Part shown: piece after piece, positions 10,745 to 50,593 of the stretch | Layout of the letters: each line of letters starts with the position of its first letter | How positions within the stretch are numbered: position 1 is the first letter of the stretch | From: Escherichia coli | GTDB taxonomy: Bacteria > Pseudomonadota > Gammaproteobacteria > Enterobacterales > Enterobacteriaceae | Assembly: GCF_029227855.1 (NCBI RefSeq) | Contig: NZ_CP074356.1 | DNA: 64,000 nt | Reading direction: 5' to 3' (one strand) | The notes under the pieces: model-generated | What the model saw: the letters and a program-made list of their open reading frames with translations, nothing else | The model's database searches: none | Told to the model about the DNA's origin: nothing | Position numbers and translations under genes: made by a program

Positions 10745-10883
10745 TTACAGCCAGTTCTTACGCTTAAAGTACAGATACGGTGTCAGGCCCGCGAGGATCA
10801 TAAAGATAATCGCGCCAGGGTAGCCGAAGCCCCACTTCAGTTCTGGCATAAACTCAAAGTTCATGCCATAGCTGGAGGCAATC
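10745..10883 (-). pseudogene. duplicated 3' fragment of corA (last ~46 codons and stop)
   Basis: About 135-140 bp nearly identical (about 8 mismatches) to 12456..12595 at the true corA 3' end; encodes ...[43 protein letters not shown] versus ...[29 protein letters not shown] in intact corA. Confidence 0.8.
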
Positions 10884-12455: not shown

Positions 12456-13406
12456 TTACAGCCAGTTCTTGCGCTTAAAGTACAGATACGGTGCCAGGCC
12501 CGCGAGGATCATAAAGATAATCGCGCCTGGGTAGCCGAAACTCCACTTCAGTTCTGGCATAAACTCAAAGTTCATCCCATAGCTGGAAGCAACGAGCGTC
12601 GGCGGCAGGAATACCACGGATACCACCGAGAAGATTTTGATGATGCGGTTCTGCTCGATGTTGATAAAGCCCATCGCCGCCTGCATCAGGAAGTTCACCT
12701 TCTGGAACAGGGATTCGTTATGCGGCAGCAGGGATTCGATATCTCGCAGGATTTCACGCGCCTGCTCCAGTTGCCCACCCGGTAAACGCGCCTTGCGTAC
12801 CAGGAAGTTGAGCGCACGCTGGGTATCCATCAGACACAGGCGAACTTTCCAGCCGATATCTTCCAGTTCCGCCAGCGTGGAGAGCGCCTCATCGTACTCA
12901 TCGCCCTGATGCCCTTCCATAATTACCCGGCTCAACTGCTCCAGATCGCTGTAGATATTTTCAATTTCATCTGCCAGCTGTTCGATTTTGGTTTCGAACA
13001 GATCCAACAGCAGCTCGTAGGCGTTACCGTCCACCATTGACTGGCTACGGGCGCGCATACGATACAGACGGAATGCAGGCAGTTCACGCTCACGCAGAGT
13101 AAACAGACGACCATCACGGATGGTAAATGCCACAGTGGAGTTACCGGCGTGATCTTCCGCATCTTCAAAGAAGAAGAAGGAGTGAATATGCAGGCCGTCA
13201 TCGTCTTCAAAGAAACGTGCCGATGCTTCGATGTCTTCCAGTTCCGGGCGGGTTGCCAGGCTCTGGCCAAGTTCAGATTGTACGCGCAGTCGCTCGTCGT
13301 CGTCCGGTTCGACAAGATCAATCCATACTGCATTTACAAGGGGTTGTGACTCTTCGACTTCCAGCCGGGTCAGTCGGTTATTTTCCAGTTGAAATGCGCT
13401 CAGCAT
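12456..13406 (-). CDS. corA: Mg2+/Co2+ transport protein CorA
   Basis: 316 aa from [12 protein letters not shown]; C-terminal TM helices with the YGMNF signature (GMN motif). Confidence 0.93.
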
Positions 13407-13775: not shown

Positions 13776-14540
13776 ATGGCGCATCGGCTACTCATTGGTA
13801 AAGGAATGATCACCTTGAATCTCAAACGGATTTTTCTCGCCCTCACCTTACTTCCCTTGTTTGCTGTTGCCGCTGATGATTGCGCACTCTCAGATCCGAC
13901 GCTGACCGTACAGGCGTATACCGTTAATCCTCAAACAGAGCGGGTGAAAATGTACTGGCAAAAAGCCAATGGCGAAGCGTGGGGAACTTTACATGCTCTG
14001 CTGGCGGATATGAATAGTCAGGGTCAGGTGCAGATGGCGATGAACGGCGGCATCTATGATGAAAGCTATGCGCCGCTCGGTTTGTACATCGAAAACGGTC
14101 AGCAGAAGGTGGCGTTAAATCTCGCTTCAGGTGAAGGGAATTTCTTTATCCGTCCTGGCGGCGAGTTTTATGTCGCGGGAGATAAAGTCGGCATCGTTCG
14201 TCTGGATGCCTTCAAAACCAGTAAAGAGATTCAGTTTGCGGTGCAGTCAGGGCCAATGTTGATGGAAAACAGTGTAATTAATCCGCGTATTCATCCCAAC
14301 GTCGCCTCACGTAAAATTCGTAACGGTGTTGGGATTAATAAACATGGGAATGCCGTGTTTTTGTTGAGCCAGCAGGCGACAAATTTTTATGATTTTGCCT
14401 GTTATGCCAAAGCGAAACTGAACGTTGAGCAGCTGCTTTATCTTGATGGCACGATTTCACATATGTATATGAAAGGCGGGGCAATCCCGTGGCAACGCTA
14501 TCCTTTTGTCACCATGATTTCCGTAGAGCGGAAAGGTTAA
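13776..14540 (+). CDS. yigE: conserved protein of unknown function (YigE-like), probable signal peptide
   Basis: 254-aa ORF with an N-terminal hydrophobic region (IFLALTLLPLFAVAADD); synteny between corA and uvrD. Confidence 0.8.
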   Translation: MAHRLLIGKGMITLNLKRIFLALTLLPLFAVAADDCALSDPTLTVQAYTVNPQTERVKMYWQKANGEAWGTLHALLADMNSQGQVQMAMNGGIYDESYAPLGLYIENGQQKVALNLASGEGNFFIRPGGEFYVAGDKVGIVRLDAFKTSKEIQFAVQSGPMLMENSVINPRIHPNVASRKIRNGVGINKHGNAVFLLSQQATNFYDFACYAKAKLNVEQLLYLDGTISHMYMKGGAIPWQRYPFVTMISVERKG

Positions 14541-14576
14541 AACGATAGTTTTGTGTCAGATACTGAAGATGGCGCA

Positions 14577-14683
14577 GATGCCGGATGCGGCGTAAACGCC
14601 CTATCCGGCCTACATGACGTTGCAATTTATTGAATATGAATGATTTTTTAGGCCAAATAAGGTGCGCAGCACCGCATCCGGCA
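14577..14683. repeat. BIME-like cluster: two REP units flanking an IHF-like motif
   Basis: gatgccggatgcggcgtaaacgccctatccggcctac and ggtgcgcagcaccgcatccggca with tgcaatttattgaat between them; lies between convergent yigE and uvrD. Confidence 0.6.
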
Positions 14684-14686
14684 ACG

Positions 14687-16849
14687 TTACACCGACTCCA
14701 GCCGGGCGTATGCCGCCACCAGCCATTTAATACCCTGGCCCTGGAATGCCACCTGCAAACGGCTATGCTCGCCGCTGCCTTCCATATTGACGATGGTGCC
14801 TTCACCAAACTTAGCGTGGCGTACACGCTGACCGAGCTTGTAGCCGCTGTCGTTCTCGACCATCGGCGTCCCCATCCGTTGATGGCTGACCGGACGACTT
14901 ACCGTAGCGCGCAGGCGCACCTCTTCCACACACTCTTCCGGCAGCTCGCCGATAAAGCGCGACGGGCGATGGTAAACCTCTTTACCATACAGACGGCGGG
15001 TTTCCGCGTAGGTCAGCGTCAGTTTCTGCATCGCGCGGGTTACACCAACGTAGGCCAGACGGCGTTCTTCTTCCAGACGCCCGCCTTCATCCAGCGACAT
15101 CTGGCTTGGGAACATACCCTCTTCCATACCGACAATAAACACCTGCGGGAACTCCAGGCCTTTCGCCGAGTGCAGCGTCATCAACTGCACTGCATCCTGC
15201 CAGGTATCCGCCTGCCCCTCGCCCGCTTCCAGCGCCGCATGGGAGAGGAATGCCTGCAGCGGCATTAAATCTTCATCTTCTTCGTTGTAGCTGAACTGGC
15301 GCGTTGCCGTCACCAGTTCCTCTAAGTTTTCGATACGCGTCTGGCCTTTTTCGCCCTTCTCCTGCTCGTACATGGTGCGCAGGCCGGAGTCTTTAATTAC
15401 CCGGTCAGTCTGTACATGCAGCGGCATATCGGCAGTTTCTTGCGCTAAGGCATCGATTAATTCCATAAATCGCTGCAAGGCGCTGGCAGCTCGCCCGGCG
15501 AGGGCTTTTTCCTGCAACAGTTCACGACATGCCTGCCAGAGTGTTAACTGGCGATCGCGCGATGTCTGACGTACCACGTCCAGCGTCCGGTCACCAATAC
15601 CCCGCGTTGGCGTATTCACCACGCGCTCAAACGCCGCGTCGTCGTTACGGTTGGCAATCAGACGCAGATACGAGAGCGCGTCTTTGATTTCCTGGCGTTC
15701 GAAGAAGCGCATCCCGCCGTAAATACGGTACGGCATACTGGCCTGCAACAGTGCTTCTTCCAGTACACGCGACTGGGCGTTACTGCGGTAGAGAATGGCG
15801 CACTCGGCAAGCGCCCCGCCGTTGTCCTGCCAGGTTTTGATGCGGTTAACCACAAAACGCGCTTCATCGAGTTCGTTAAAAGCGCAATAGAGGGAAATAG
15901 GCTCACCGTCCGCGCCATCGGTCCACAGTTTTTTACCCAGACGCCCGTTATTGTTTTCAATCAGGGCGTTAGCGGCGCTCAGAATATTGCTGGTAGAGCG
16001 GTAGTTTTGCTCCAGACGAATAGTTTCGGCACCGGGGAAATCATTAAGGAAACGCTGAATATTCTCCACCTGCGCCCCGCGCCAGCCGTAGATTGACTGG
16101 TCGTCATCACCGACGATCATCACTTTGCCGGTGTCGCCCGCCAGCAGGCGGATCCACGCGTACTGAATGTTGTTGGTATCCTGGAATTCGTCCACCAGGA
16201 TATTGGTAAAACGTTCGCGGTAGTGTTGTAGGATATGCGGCTTGTTAAGCCACAGTTCGTGAGCGCGCAGCAGCAGCTCGGCGAAGTCCACCAGGCCCGC
16301 GCGGTCACACGCTTCCTGATACGCCTGATACACCTTCTGCCAGGTCTGCTCCACCGGATTACCGTAGCTTTGAATATGATGCGGACGCAGGCCTTCATCT
16401 TTCTGGCTGTTGATGTACCACATTGCCTGGCGCGGCGGCCACTGCTTCTCGTCGAGGTTCATGGCTTTGATCAGACGCTTAAGCAGGCGCAGCTGGTCCT
16501 CGCTATCGAGGATCTGGAAATCCTGCGGCAGATTGGCGTCCATATGGTGCGCACGCAGCAGGCGGTGCGCCAGCCCGTGGAAGGTGCCGACCCACATGCC
16601 GCCCTGGCTGGTGCCCATCAGTTGCCCGATACGATGACGCATCTCCGCCGCCGCTTTGTTGGTAAACGTCACCGCCATAATCGAGTATGGCGAGCAGTTT
16701 TCCACGCTCATCAGCCAGGCGATACGATGCACCAGTACGCGCGTCTTACCACTGCCCGCGCCCGCCAGCACCAGAAGGTTGCTGCGTGGCGCGGCCACCG
16801 CTTCGCGCTGTTTGTCATTAAGGCTGTCGAGCAGGTAAGAAACGTCCAT
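14687..16849 (-). CDS. uvrD: DNA helicase II UvrD
   Basis: ORF track gives 783 aa; true start MDVSYLLDSLNDKQREAVAAP gives 720 aa; Walker A AGAGSGKT; UvrD/Rep family. Confidence 0.93.
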   Translation of the reverse strand: MDVSYLLDSLNDKQREAVAAPRSNLLVLAGAGSGKTRVLVHRIAWLMSVENCSPYSIMAVTFTNKAAAEMRHRIGQLMGTSQGGMWVGTFHGLAHRLLRAHHMDANLPQDFQILDSEDQLRLLKRLIKAMNLDEKQWPPRQAMWYINSQKDEGLRPHHIQSYGNPVEQTWQKVYQAYQEACDRAGLVDFAELLLRAHELWLNKPHILQHYRERFTNILVDEFQDTNNIQYAWIRLLAGDTGKVMIVGDDDQSIYGWRGAQVENIQRFLNDFPGAETIRLEQNYRSTSNILSAANALIENNNGRLGKKLWTDGADGEPISLYCAFNELDEARFVVNRIKTWQDNGGALAECAILYRSNAQSRVLEEALLQASMPYRIYGGMRFFERQEIKDALSYLRLIANRNDDAAFERVVNTPTRGIGDRTLDVVRQTSRDRQLTLWQACRELLQEKALAGRAASALQRFMELIDALAQETADMPLHVQTDRVIKDSGLRTMYEQEKGEKGQTRIENLEELVTATRQFSYNEEDEDLMPLQAFLSHAALEAGEGQADTWQDAVQLMTLHSAKGLEFPQVFIVGMEEGMFPSQMSLDEGGRLEEERRLAYVGVTRAMQKLTLTYAETRRLYGKEVYHRPSRFIGELPEECVEEVRLRATVSRPVSHQRMGTPMVENDSGYKLGQRVRHAKFGEGTIVNMEGSGEHSRLQVAFQGQGIKWLVAAYARLESV

Positions 16850-25765: not shown

Positions 25766-26977
25766 ATGACGGAACAAGAAAAAACCTCCGCCGTGGTTGA
25801 AGAGACCAGGGAGGCCGTGGACACCACGTCACAACCTGTCGCAACAGAAAAAAAGAGTAAGAACAATACCGCATTGATTCTCAGCGCGGTGGCTATCGCT
25901 ATTGCTCTGGCGGCGGGCGTCGGTTTGTATGGCTGGGGTAAACAACAGGCCGTCAATCAGACCGCCACCAGCGATGCCCTGGCTAACCAACTGACGGCAT
26001 TGCAAAAAGCCCAGGAGAGCCAAAAAGCCGAGCTGGAAGGCATTATTAAGCAACAAGCTGCACAGCTTAAGCAGGCGAATCGTCAGCAAGAAACGCTGGC
26101 AAAACAGTTGGATGAAGTCCAACAAAAGGTCGCCACCATTTCCGGCAGCGATGCTAAAACCTGGCTGCTGGCTCAGGCCGATTTTCTGGTGAAACTCGCC
26201 GGACGGAAGCTGTGGAGCGATCAGGACGTCACGACCGCTGCAGCGTTGCTGAAAAGTGCAGATGCCAGCCTGGCGGATATGAATGACCCGAGTCTGATTA
26301 CCGTTCGTCGGGCAATTACCGATGATATCGCCAGCCTTTCTGCAGTTTCGCAGGTGGATTATGACGGCATCATCCTTAAGCTTAATCAGCTTTCAAATCA
26401 GGTAGATAACCTGCGTCTGGCCGATAATGACAGCGATGGTTCGCCGATGGATTCCGACGGTGAAGAGCTTTCCAGTTCCATCAGCGAATGGCGTATCAAT
26501 CTGCAAAAAAGCTGGCAGAACTTTATGGACAACTTCATTACGATTCGCCGTCGTGATGACACCGCCGTACCGCTGTTAGCGCCAAATCAGGATATCTATC
26601 TGCGCGAAAATATTCGCTCTCGCCTGCTGGTCGCAGCACAAGCTGTACCGCGTCATCAGGAAGAGACTTATCGCCAGGCGCTGGAGAACGTCTCCACCTG
26701 GGTACGTGCTTACTACGATACTGATGATGCCACCACCAAAGCATTCCTCGACGAGGTGGACCAGTTAAGCCAGCAAAATATCTCGATGGATCTTCCGGAA
26801 ACCCTGCAAAGCCAGGCGATGCTGGAAAAACTGATGCAGACTCGCGTGCGTAACCTGCTGGCACAACCGGCAGCGGGGACAACGGAAGCTAAACCTGCAC
26901 CTGCACCTGCACCTGCACCTGCACCTGCACCTGCACCGCAAGGTGATACTCCGGCAGCCGCGCCGCAAGGAGAATAA
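25766..26977 (+). CDS. hemX: HemX membrane protein with coiled-coil and Pro-Ala repeat
   Basis: 403-aa ORF with an N-terminal TM segment, Q-rich coiled-coil region and a C-terminal (PA)n tract. Confidence 0.88.
26894..26929 (+). repeat. perfect hexanucleotide tandem repeat (CCTGCA)x6 inside hemX
   Basis: Six exact CCTGCA copies encoding [12 protein letters not shown], followed by a degenerate seventh unit. Confidence 0.9.
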
Positions 26978-28223: not shown

Positions 28224-28430
28224 AAAAAAACGCCTGCTCTTATTACGGAGCAGGCGTTAAAACAGGTCTGTATGACAACAAGTGGGTGCTTCACTCAACG
28301 TTGTGTCCATGGTGTCTGATGAGGCATAAGCGACATCTGTCAGTGGACGATAAGCACCGTAAACGGCTCTGCGTCATTCCGGAGTTTATGAGGCACTAAG
28401 GCGAACATAAGAGATGGAATGAGCATCTAC
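28224..28430 (-). ncRNA. glmZ: small regulatory RNA GlmZ (glmS activation pathway)
   Basis: Reverse-complement reads GTAGATGCTCATTCCATCTCTTATGTTCGCC...CCTGCTCCGTAATAAGAGCAGGCGTTTTTTT, matching GlmZ as I recall it, including the terminal hairpin and U-tract; about 207 nt. Confidence 0.85.
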
Positions 28431-28855: not shown

Positions 28856-29020
28856 ATGGAATTTTCGTTTTCACCCAAACTTTTTGTTGTTGCTGTCGCC
28901 GCCGCTCTTCCTCTCATGGCCAGCGCAGCAGATACCCCGTCAACTGCCACCGCACGCAAAGGCTTTGCCGGATACGATCACCCAAACCAGTATCCACAGA
29001 ACGCTGCAATTTATTGAATT
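28856..29020 (+). pseudogene. 5' remnant (about 54 codons) of a secreted-protein gene, probably arylsulfatase aslA
   Basis: ATG at 28856 encodes [46 protein letters not shown]... (signal peptide with ASA cleavage motif), then runs into REP sequence and stops; synteny predicts a ~550-aa aslA here but only about 670 bp separate glmZ from aslB. Confidence 0.5.
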
Positions 29021-29030
29021 TGCACGATCA

Positions 29031-29069
<39 letters not shown>

Positions 29070-29100
29070 AACCGCAGGCGGCCACAAAATGGCCGCTTTT

Positions 29101-30336
29101 TTACTTATTCACCACCAGCAAATGTGCCTGCATAATGTCACTGGCCGGGCGACCGTGCGCCAGCAAATCAGCCATTGCTTTAAGATATGGCGGTAGATGG
29201 CGGAAATAACGCTGATACCCGGCACACAAATAATTCAGCCCCGGTTTGCCGCTGGCATCGAGCATGAAGCGGTGTTTCGGGCAGCCTCCCCAGCACGCTT
29301 TTAACACGTTACAACTGCGACACTGCGCCGGTAATTGCTTAAATTTATCTTCACCAAACACCTGCTGTTGCGGGGAATCGATCATTTCTGCAATTGTTTG
29401 CTGATGCATATTCCCCAGCCGATATTGCGGATAAACATAGTGATCGCAGGCGTAAACGTCGCCGTTGTGCTCAACAATCACCGAGCGCCCACAGGTTGGC
29501 TGATGATGGCAAACCGCACCCGGCGCACCGACAAAATTGGCAAACGCCCATTCGATATTCATCACGAAAATCTTGCCGACGTCGCGTTTGATCCAGTGGT
29601 CGAATATCGCCACCAGAAATTCACCAAATTCATCGGGGCGCACCGACCATTCCGTCAGTTCCCCCTGAATATCACCAGGCGCATGTAGTTTCAGTCCATC
29701 GCTGGCAGCTGTTTCATCAGCCAGGCGCTCGACCACCGGAATAAACTGGATGAATTCGACTCCCGCATCGCACAAAAAATCATAAACCTGCAACGGTTGC
29801 TGCGCGCTGGTGCGGTTGACGCAGACCAGCACGTTATAGTCGACATGATGTTTTTGCAGCAGCGTCAGGGCACGCATCACCAGCTTATGCGTTGGTCTGC
29901 CACCTTTGGTCACGCGATATTGATTGTGGATCTCAGCCGGACCGTCCAGCGATAACCCAACAAGAAAATGATTTTCTGCCAGAAATGCACACCATTTATC
30001 ATCGAGCAGCACGCCGTTAGTCTGGAAGCTGTTACTTATCTTCCTGCCAGCACCGTATTTCGCCTGTAACTTTACGGCACGGCGGTAAAAATCCAGCCCG
30101 AGTAACGTTGGTTCGCCGCCCTGCCAGGTAAAAGCCACTTCGTTTTGCGGTTCGCTGGCAGCGATATAGTGACGGACATACGCTTCCAGCGTGTCATCGT
30201 CCATATGCGTGACTGGCTTTTCGCGGTAAAGGGATTGTTTTTCGAGATAAAAACAGTAGTCACAGTTCAGATTACAATCGGAACCACTCGGTTTCGCCAT
30301 CACATGAAAAGCACGCGTTGGAACCTGTTGCAGCAT
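29101..30336 (-). CDS. aslB: anaerobic sulfatase-maturating enzyme homolog (radical SAM)
   Basis: Start at MLQQVPTRAFHVMAKPSGSDCNLNCDYCFY gives 411 aa; CxxxCxxC radical-SAM motif and C-terminal Cys clusters. Confidence 0.88.
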   Translation of the reverse strand: MLQQVPTRAFHVMAKPSGSDCNLNCDYCFYLEKQSLYREKPVTHMDDDTLEAYVRHYIAASEPQNEVAFTWQGGEPTLLGLDFYRRAVKLQAKYGAGRKISNSFQTNGVLLDDKWCAFLAENHFLVGLSLDGPAEIHNQYRVTKGGRPTHKLVMRALTLLQKHHVDYNVLVCVNRTSAQQPLQVYDFLCDAGVEFIQFIPVVERLADETAASDGLKLHAPGDIQGELTEWSVRPDEFGEFLVAIFDHWIKRDVGKIFVMNIEWAFANFVGAPGAVCHHQPTCGRSVIVEHNGDVYACDHYVYPQYRLGNMHQQTIAEMIDSPQQQVFGEDKFKQLPAQCRSCNVLKACWGGCPKHRFMLDASGKPGLNYLCAGYQRYFRHLPPYLKAMADLLAHGRPASDIMQAHLLVVNK

Positions 30337-30482: not shown

Positions 30483-30559
30483 TGGTCGGCGAGAGAGGAT
30501 TCGAACCTCCGACCCACTGGTCCCAAACCAGTTGCGCTACCAAGCTGCGCTACTCGCCG
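30483..30559 (-). tRNA. proM: tRNA-Pro (anticodon UGG)
   Basis: Reverse-complement CGGCGAGTAGCGCAGCTTGGTAGCGCAACTGGTTTGGGACCAGTGGGTCGGAGGTTCGAATCCTCTCTCGCCGACCA, with encoded CCA. Confidence 0.95.
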
Positions 30560-30600
30560 AAATACTGCTTTTTGAATTTTTAGTTCAATTCTTTAAAGTC

Positions 30601-30687
30601 GTGGTGCGAGGGGGGGGACTTGAACCCCCACGTCCGTAAGGACACTAACACCTGAAGCTAGCGCGTCTACCAATTCCGCCACCTTCG
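30601..30687 (-). tRNA. leuT: tRNA-Leu (anticodon CAG)
   Basis: Reverse-complement GCGAAGGTGGCGGAATTGGTAGACGCGCTAGCTTCAGGTGTTAGTGTCCTTACGGACGTGGGGGTTCAAGTCCCCCCCCTCGCACCA (87 nt, long variable arm). Confidence 0.95.
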
Positions 30688-30717
30688 CATTGTCACAACT
30701 TCTAATAATGGGGTGGC

Positions 30718-30794
30718 TAATGGGATTCGAACCCACGACAACTGGAATCACAATCCAGGGCTCTACCAACTGAGCTATAGCCACCACTACAAAT
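30718..30794 (-). tRNA. hisR: tRNA-His (anticodon GUG)
   Basis: Reverse-complement GGTGGCTATAGCTCAGTTGGTAGAGCCCTGGATTGTGATTCCAGTTGTCGTGGGTTCGAATCCCATTAGCCACCCCA, including the extra 5' G typical of tRNA-His. Confidence 0.95.
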
Positions 30795-30842
30795 CTTGTT
30801 ACGCGGTATTACTACCACCGCAGCTCAAGCGCCGGGACTAAA

Positions 30843-30919
<77 letters not shown>

Positions 30920-47203: not shown

Positions 47204-47533
47204 TTACGCCAGGTTAGCGTCGAGGAACTCTTTCAACTGACCTTTAGACAGTGCACCCACTTTGGTTGCCGCCACTTCACCGTTTTTGAACAGCAGCAGA
47301 GTCGGGATACCACGGATGCCATATTTCGGCGCAGTGCCAGGGTTTTGATCGATGTTCAGTTTTGCAACGGTCAGTTTGCCCTGATATTCGTCAGCGATTT
47401 CATCCAGAATCGGGGCGATCATTTTGCACGGACCGCACCACTCTGCCCAGAAATCGACGAGGATCGCCCCGTCCGCTTTGAGTACATCCGTGTCAAAACT
47501 GTCGTCAGTCAGGTGAATAATTTTATCGCTCAT
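47204..47533 (-). CDS. trxA: thioredoxin 1
   Basis: 109 aa from [50 protein letters not shown] (WCGPC active site); the ORF track upstream extension was rejected. Confidence 0.95.
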
Positions 47534-47663
47534 ATATAACTCCACAGGAATAAGCCTGGCGTGTTGGTTTCGTTGTTGGTGTAACATTAACCAACTAAAG
47601 GTTGACTTTATTTCACCGGATACGCTTTCGTAAAGCAATAGTAAGCTGATATTCTACCACACT

Positions 47664-50547: not shown

Positions 50548-50593
50548 TGAGTAAGTGCCGGATGCGATGCTGACGCATCTTTTCCGGCCTTGA

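Follow-up and report, generated by a model that had tools for sequence, protein, structure and literature searches.

BIME-1 elements, reportedly described by Gilson in 1991 and Bachellier in 1994, are said to be of the same class as the RIB elements of Boccard and Prentki (1993) and the RIP elements of Oppenheim (1993). The labels y, z1 and z2 for the REPs of such elements follow the general nomenclature, together with a consensus drawn from Escherichia albertii. A BIME-1 consists of a z1 and a y REP separated by a long conserved L linker in which an IHF site is frequent (PMC3333891; PMC2817692). REP pairs can also collapse, and the REPINs of Pseudomonas provide a precedent for reduction to "long palindromic REP singlets" (PMC3337134). 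The REP-associated transposase TnpA-REP (RAYT) has been characterized in vitro, where it (i) cuts CC^TAC in the CTAC foot of inverted REPs (site II) as well as C^T linker-type sites, (ii) needs a GTAG-bearing REP in cis, (iii) acts over considerable distance, and (iv) joins the cut sites (PMC3333891).

The DNA analysed here, referred to as the window, is a stretch of 64,000 nt of Escherichia coli that runs opposite to the K-12 coordinates of ~3.97-4.03 Mb. It holds two copies of one 15-nt motif, both of which are very probably the conserved core of the L linker of BIME-1-type (RIP/RIB; REP doublet/REPIN) elements between convergent genes. The motif thus belongs to a repeat class known since the early 1990s, E. 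coli K-12 has both sites as well, and the motif finding is ordinary because it concerns the core of a well-known REP-pair linker. A modestly interesting by-product is the series of alleles at aslA-aslB, which combines an inversion with a joint at transposase-type sites and deserves specialist attention.

Two copies of the motif

The 15-mer TGCAATTTATTGAAT is present in exactly two copies in the window, both on the + strand, at 14621-14635 and 29005-29019. An earlier note on this DNA had placed the two copies at 14615..14629 and 29006..29020; the copies are real, and these coordinates are off by 6 and 1 nt, respectively. The note was right that a REP palindrome adjoins each copy, which is seen at both loci, and that the second copy sits at the aslA deletion junction, where it starts 10 nt to the right of the joint 28994|28995.

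A lone repeated 15-mer in 64 kb is not above chance. Mononucleotide shuffles of the window contain ~5 repeated 15-mer pairs, 32 independent repeat runs are present before shuffling, and lone 15-mer pairs are numerous in the window, all of which would suit a coincidence between two sequences of no common origin. Against such a coincidence, the two linkers are identical at 27/35 positions in direct alignment (16/35 when one is inverted), REPs flank both copies, and among the matches listed in a species scan REP-flanked copies number 30 in E. albertii versus 0/91 in unrelated genomes. The match is considered real because the identity spans the whole linker, REPs adjoin both copies, and the genome-wide pattern agrees. 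Extended homology and the census together lead to rejection of a chance repeat, whose probability is negligible.

The yigE-uvrD element

Locus 1 lies between the convergent genes yigE (stop 14538-14540) and uvrD (stop 14687-14689, - strand) and has the following features:

14579..14613, + strand: left REP, canonical y-type in "inverted REP" orientation, ending in CTAC, tgccggatgcggcgtaaacgccctatccggcCTAC; matches the E. albertii y-REP consensus
14614..14647, + strand: L linker of 34 nt, atgacgt TGCAATTTATTGAAT atgaatgatttt, with the motif at 14621-14635
14623-14635, - strand: IHF-like core ATTCAATAAATTG
14648..14683, + strand: right REP, non-canonical, TTAGgccaaataaggtgcgcagcaccgcatccggca, with the foot TTAG instead of GTAG

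The left REP starts 38 nt past the yigE stop codon, and the right REP ends 3 nt from the stop codon of uvrD. A REP just past a stop codon reportedly stalls terminating ribosomes and lowers expression (Liang, Rudd and Deutscher 2015), and the right REP may act in this way on uvrD. The spacers around the motif, 7 and 12 nt, are inside the family range. In the minimum-energy fold of 14570-14695, the left REP pairs with the right REP into a long hairpin of which the linker is the loop (-47 and -60 kcal/mol; z-scores of -4.2 on the + strand and -6.8 on the - strand), and locus 1 therefore displays the REP-against-REP hairpin in single strand by which a REPIN is recognized.

The spacer itself (window 14541-14690) is dimorphic. 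Its 146-bp REP-pair form is found in 3,011 genomes, and ~2,400 genomes (O157, ST131, and others) carry in its place a 903-bp gene annotated as belonging to the SAM hydrolase/SAM-dependent halogenase family. In the two genomes read, O157 Z1825 and one ST131, the 903-bp gene is followed by a palindrome whose arms are the outer arms of the window's two REPs; the outer arm of the right REP is common to the window and this single palindrome of O157/ST131.

The aslA-aslB element

In intact alleles (K-12, O157, and others), locus 2 consists of a long z2-like REP...CTAC, a 34-nt linker, and a GTAG...canonical y REP. The window carries a shortened version with the following features:

28856..29017, + strand: truncated aslA frame of 53 codons, made up of 46 aslA codons and 7 read through the linker, with the stop TGA inside the motif
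28994..28997, + strand: aslA deletion joint; aslA ends with c28994, c28995-a-c28997 is what remains of the CTAC foot of the lost REP, and 28995 is changed from T to C relative to a simple joint
28998..29031, + strand: L linker of 34 nt, agaacgc TGCAATTTATTGAAT ttgcacgatcat, with the motif at 29005-29019
29007-29019, - strand: IHF-like core
29032..29066, + strand: canonical y REP in REP orientation, starting with GTAG, GTAGgccggataaggcgtttacgccgcatccggca; the sole REP remaining at aslA-aslB in the window
29076..29102, + strand: terminator-like hairpin 3' of the y REP with a T-run that overlaps the stop codon of aslB at 29101-29103 (- strand)

The region folds into a separate REP hairpin and a terminator hairpin, with the y REP hairpin predicted on both strands. 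The aslA copy in the window is a half element, the remainder of a REP-L-REP element that already existed when the deletion occurred.

Two observations concern the surroundings of this element. The terminator-like hairpin gcggccacaaaatggccgc followed by a T-run, 3' of the y REP (window 29067-29102), is shared by the window, O157, and all deletion alleles, and K-12, 10R, and PK8276 have a shorter variant, gcggccgccgatttc, that is devoid of it. Elsewhere in the window, the single REP at 50557-50592 (tgccggatgcgatgctgacgcatcttttccggcc) shares its unusual tip, gatgcgatgctgacgcatc, with the REP lost at aslA, and this REP subtype therefore recurs within the window.

Membership in the linker family

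The reach of the motif was assessed with a species scan of one genome per species using the pattern TGCAATWTATTGAAT, and all figures from it hold among the matches listed. The matches listed include 91 loci in unrelated organisms, each with a single match and none with a REP beside the motif (0/91), and 30 copies in E. albertii. All 30 listed E. albertii copies share one layout: z-type REP...CTAC, 7-9 nt, motif, 11-13 nt, GTAG...y-type REP. The left spacer is 8 nt in 22 of the 30 and the right spacer 12 nt in 23; in a few, one REP is degenerate or absent, and in 0/30 does the y REP lie on the CTAC side of the linker. The linker consensus of E. albertii, read on the opposite strand, is CTAC-AAAA-tcnTgcA-AATTCAATATATTGCA.

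The detailed census comprises E. albertii and BLAST counts for E. coli, whose genomes have a median of at least 19 sites with a match to both the motif and the linker's right half, the median of 19 being a lower bound. The motif thus behaves as a dispersed family restricted to enterobacteria, with 30 listed copies in E. albertii, a median of at least 19 in E. coli, and REP-free matches in unrelated organisms. The earlier note had proposed a genome-wide search for the motif and its association with REPs; among the matches listed, the motif is REP-flanked in E. albertii and REP-free at the 91 unrelated loci. Its reading of the elements as composite BIME/RIP-type structures is borne out by architecture, linker homology, and census, and the literature agrees.

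Other traits point the same way. Within the window, the single REPs at ~4635 and 50557 are without the motif, and both paired sites have it. An inverted REP pair is found at locus 1 and, at locus 2, in intact alleles only. Both linkers measure 34 nt, in agreement with the length of the L linker (34-35 nt), and fit the consensus of the 30 listed E. albertii copies. Each site holds a single extragenic copy at the 3' ends of convergent genes, yigE(+)/uvrD(-) and aslA(+)/aslB(-). The strict arrangement, in which z1 is paired with y and y lies on the GTAG side of a linker oriented TGCAAT..., is found at neither locus. Locus 1 has y on the CTAC side and aslA-aslB has a z2-like partner, and both are therefore L-bearing "atypical" variants in strict nomenclature. 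The RefSeq K-12 record annotates no REP/RIP feature at either site, and no Rfam family matches at either locus.

A putative IHF-type site

On the strand opposite the motif, the sequence ATTCAATAAATTG matches the IHF core consensus WATCAANNNNTTR at 12/13 positions. The resemblance on which the earlier note remarked, between the reverse complement of the motif and an IHF-binding consensus, is real. The core match alone is weak evidence for IHF because 61 sites in the window match equally well (2 exact and 59 with one mismatch). An A-tract accompanies the core at locus 1 (- strand; T-run at 14644-14649) and is absent at locus 2, and in the E. albertii family consensus the A-tract, core, and TTG follow one another and are spaced as they are in strong IHF sites. 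To judge by family membership, IHF may bind at both sites. No locus-level IHF binding at the two sites is given in the supplements of Kasho 2021, and the texts of Kasho 2021 and Prieto 2012 contain no mention of REPs.

By analogy with the literature, the parts of such an element could work as follows. The putative IHF-type site of the linker, on the strand opposite the motif, would comprise the A-tract, ATTCAA, and TTG, and IHF would bind the linker in double-stranded DNA and bend it sharply. Each of the two convergent genes may yield a transcript whose 3' end folds into hairpins at the REP arms, and these hairpins would stabilise or terminate the transcripts. Alternatively, the arms may pair into one long hairpin in single-stranded DNA, which would be the form of substrate recognised by the REP-associated transposase.

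REP-bounded alleles at aslA-aslB

The aslA-aslB site exists as four or five alleles over 5,426 genomes, and all differences between them break in or at a REP. One comparison is with E. albertii, whose orthologous spacer matches E. coli in its flanks and in the 11-nt outermost arms (TGCCGGATGCG ... CGCATCCGGCA), with the 84 nt between these outer arms, i.e., the REP tips, inner arms, and linker, reverse-complemented. Core identity is 76/84 without gaps after flipping versus 61/90 with gaps when unflipped. By this alignment, the difference between the two species is evidently an in-situ inversion bounded by complementary outer arms. The REPIN literature searched makes no mention of in-situ core inversion, and the older BIME literature was covered only in part.

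Two further alleles are collapsed forms. B2 strains such as JJ1886 have a single palindrome with a z-type tip, tgccggatgcgatgctgacgcatccgaca, which equals the K-12 element minus the stretch between two CGCATC repeats. Strain EC2202095 has one y REP in inverted orientation, ttgccggatgcggcgtgaacgccttatccggcaatcaacc, with ~561 genomes in its identity band; this allele is exactly what remains of the E. albertii-orientation element after deletion between ATCCGGC repeats. E. coli therefore holds descendants of both orientations. No simple deletion yields the EC2202095 allele from the K-12 orientation.

An active invertible switch, in which linker or core would flip back and forth, was rejected. The full flipped core at aslA-aslB is found in no E. 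coli genome (best match 89.8%), nor is a flipped linker found at yigE-uvrD (best match 92.1%). The flips are rare fixed events.

Linker orientation

The earlier note had described the motif as lying in opposite orientation to the REP at the two loci. This is correct for the canonical y REP, which is 5' of the motif at yigE-uvrD (14579-14613) and 3' of it at aslA-aslB (29032-29066), but the contrast is partly one of loss because intact elements have REPs on both sides and the window has lost the left one at aslA. A survey of y-type REP feet with a linker upstream found 39 canonical y-REP/linker pairs and one true exception, yigE-uvrD, in ~359 kb of Escherichia DNA; two further "inverted" calls are the z side of aslA-aslB. 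The aslA-aslB element follows the family rule that y lies on the GTAG side, whereas yigE-uvrD breaks it. The yigE-uvrD copy is complete but atypical because a canonical y REP occupies the side usually taken by a z-type REP.

One tentative explanation for the y REP on the left at yigE-uvrD is that the linker flipped by exchange between complementary inner REP arms, a smaller version of the core flip at aslA-aslB. No other true y REP among the ~40 pairs examined has its linker inverted, and inversion of a whole core bounded by outer arms is documented at aslA-aslB (76/84 after flipping). However, the opposite linker orientation at yigE-uvrD is found in 0/5,426 genomes, with a best full-length match of 92.1%, and gene conversion of REP tips or a y-L-y' chimeric origin fits equally well. 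A linker flip is accordingly regarded as possible and not probable.

The aslA deletion and its joint

The deletion, as measured from gene coordinates, is 1,578 bp long, and aslA codons 47-551 were lost with it, together with the 3' spacer and all of the left REP. Of 5,426 complete genomes, 1,728 (~32%) carry this deletion. Its joint was defined by comparison with intact aslA alleles, which places the right breakpoint precisely at the CTAC foot of the REP that was lost. All intact alleles examined have cagtatCTggtt at the left breakpoint and ccagcCTACagaacgc (ccagcCTACag) at the right, and a simple joint between them would read tatCTacag, with a 2-bp CT microhomology. This T joint is found in 3 genomes; the other 1,725 of 1,728, i.e., the window and 1,724 others, carry the C joint tatcCacag.

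Compared with ATCC 8739, which has the C joint, two of the T-joint strains show 2 SNPs in 3 kb. The remaining T-joint genome (Z1323PEC0010) has a stretch of ~500 bp with many unique substitutions in the 3' part of aslB, ~140-650 nt into the right flank and starting near the joint, which looks like an import from a divergent lineage. The T joint thus occurs on two haplotypes, one near-identical to a C-joint strain and one with a divergent patch, and a change in either direction takes one mutation. On priors, we lean toward an ancestral T joint, because a clean joint is likelier than a joint with an odd base.

The earlier note took the motif at the aslA truncation point as support for REP-mediated rearrangement there. 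Involvement of a REP in the deletion is plausible and is strengthened by a right breakpoint at the REP foot and three other REP-bounded events. The element predates the deletion. Template switching at a REP hairpin and the action of TnpA-REP are two candidate mechanisms that depend on the REP and fit the data.

Slippage or template switching comes a little short of an even chance. A REP hairpin would stall synthesis at its foot, and the nascent end would re-pair at a CT microhomology 1.6 kb off, so that the event is stimulated by the REP and not catalysed by an enzyme. The intact breakpoints give a simple joint with a 2-bp microhomology, this joint is present in 3 genomes, the right end is exactly at the foot of the hairpin, and two other aslA-aslB alleles are explained by loss of the DNA between short direct repeats within REPs (CGCATC and ATCCGGC). 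Yet a microhomology of 2 bp is weak evidence and the flanks are compatible with either joint as the ancestral one; moreover, 1,725 of the 1,728 deletion genomes have C and not T, and slippage therefore needs an extra substitution. A two-step origin of the joint via a 4-bp TATC microhomology inside the REP arm was also considered and needs two events.

Ordinary illegitimate recombination, with the right end at a REP foot by coincidence, is a weaker though still sizeable possibility. Only one of the two breakpoints touches a REP, and the chance that an endpoint falls within 1 nt of a REP boundary in the 158-bp spacer is roughly estimated at ~5-8%. Set against this are at least three other independent rearrangements at aslA-aslB and one at yigE-uvrD with breakpoints in REPs. 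A REP-independent origin is less likely because the other rearrangements at both sites break in REPs.

The deletion might also be a footprint of TnpA-REP, which is unlikely. Bound to the y REP, the enzyme would have made two cuts in the same strand, one at CC^TAC in the adjacent inverted REP and one far away at a C^T within aslA, and then joined the ends. In K-12, both ends of the deleted segment fall at a C^T, namely tatC^Tgg on the left and exactly ccagCC^TACa on the right, with the y REP on that strand as well, 34 nt farther downstream. This breakpoint pattern (both C^T, one CC^TAC, a GTAG REP in cis) fits the reconstructed parents and the 3 T-joint genomes; the window and 1,724 others carry C. 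Several points tell against the enzyme: the joint of most deletion genomes shows C where T is predicted; a C^T turns up roughly every 16 nt, which makes the left site uninformative; position -4 of the right site is A, where the consensus has G or T; and most B1 strains today are, per the literature, without tnpA-REP. The tnpA-REP gene lies at yafL-fhiA, outside the window, and we know of no RAYT-mediated deletion in E. coli in vivo.

Other features of the window

A run of 6-bp tandem repeats lies inside hemX (window 26893-26940), and the annotated length of hemX ranges from 1,182 to 1,242 bp among the strains compared, which suggests that variation in repeat number changes the length of the protein. 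The stretches 10745-10864 and 12456-12575, ~1.7 kb apart, have exact direct repeats of up to 33 nt in common. Rfam matches at 28224-28430 (-), 30486-30919 (-), 47504-47603 (-), and 62708-63000 (-) correspond to the GlmZ sRNA, four tRNAs, the TrxA 5' UTR thermometer, and a "Rev39 5' UTR" element. The tRNA cluster of O157 holds one more copy of tRNA-Leu.

Significance of the allele series

The gene aslA encodes an arylsulfatase and is a reported virulence-associated gene. The series of alleles at aslA-aslB makes this site a compact natural test case for deletion, collapse, and inversion of REP pairs. The series is also relevant to the question of whether the REP-associated transposase of E. coli acts on the chromosome in vivo. 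One reading of the series is that REP pairs of Escherichia rearrange in place via their own complementary arms (a core inversion, two collapses, and the 1,578-bp deletion). The boldest form of this reading, which is improbable, has the transposase as the catalyst of the aslA deletion and perhaps also of the flips. If true, it would provide a natural in vivo RAYT footprint, left by an event that destroyed a host gene which a third of sequenced E. coli now lack.

Comparison with known systems

The H' site of lambda attP, a canonical IHF site, consists of WATCAANNNNTTR with an A-tract upstream. The order of AAAA(A), 7-8 nt, ATTCAA, 4 nt, and TTG is shared with that site, and all three parts are present at locus 1 and in the family consensus. 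Unlike H', the linker core has T and not A at position 2, locus 2 is without the A-tract, and the site is known here from its sequence.

The deletion resembles the sites of TnpA-REP (Ton-Hoang 2012) in that its right end is CC^TAC ("iREP II"), its left end is C^T, and a GTAG REP is in cis. It differs in that the published reactions were performed in vitro on oligonucleotides and a 4.1-kb circle, whereas here there is one natural joint, which is one base off the product predicted for TnpA-REP in 1,725 of 1,728 genomes.

Like REPINs (Bertels and Rainey 2011), locus 1 folds REP against REP into one long hairpin, and the B2, O157, and ST131 alleles, as single palindromes of outer arms, are like the REPIN "long palindromic REP singlets". 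In contrast, the REPINs described are those of Pseudomonas, whose REP sequences differ and which have no IHF linker.

The closest likeness is to BIME-1. The elements differ from it as follows: at locus 1, a y REP occupies the usual z1 side and is paired with a non-canonical REP whose foot is TTAG; in intact alleles of aslA-aslB, the partner is longer and z2-like, with CCGG arms, rather than z1, and in the window the left REP is deleted so that a half element remains. The traits shared with BIME-1 are (i) two inverted REPs, (ii) a conserved linker of ~34 nt with a putative IHF-type site, (iii) a single copy per site, (iv) an extragenic position at the 3' ends of convergent units, and (v) tens of copies per Escherichia genome.
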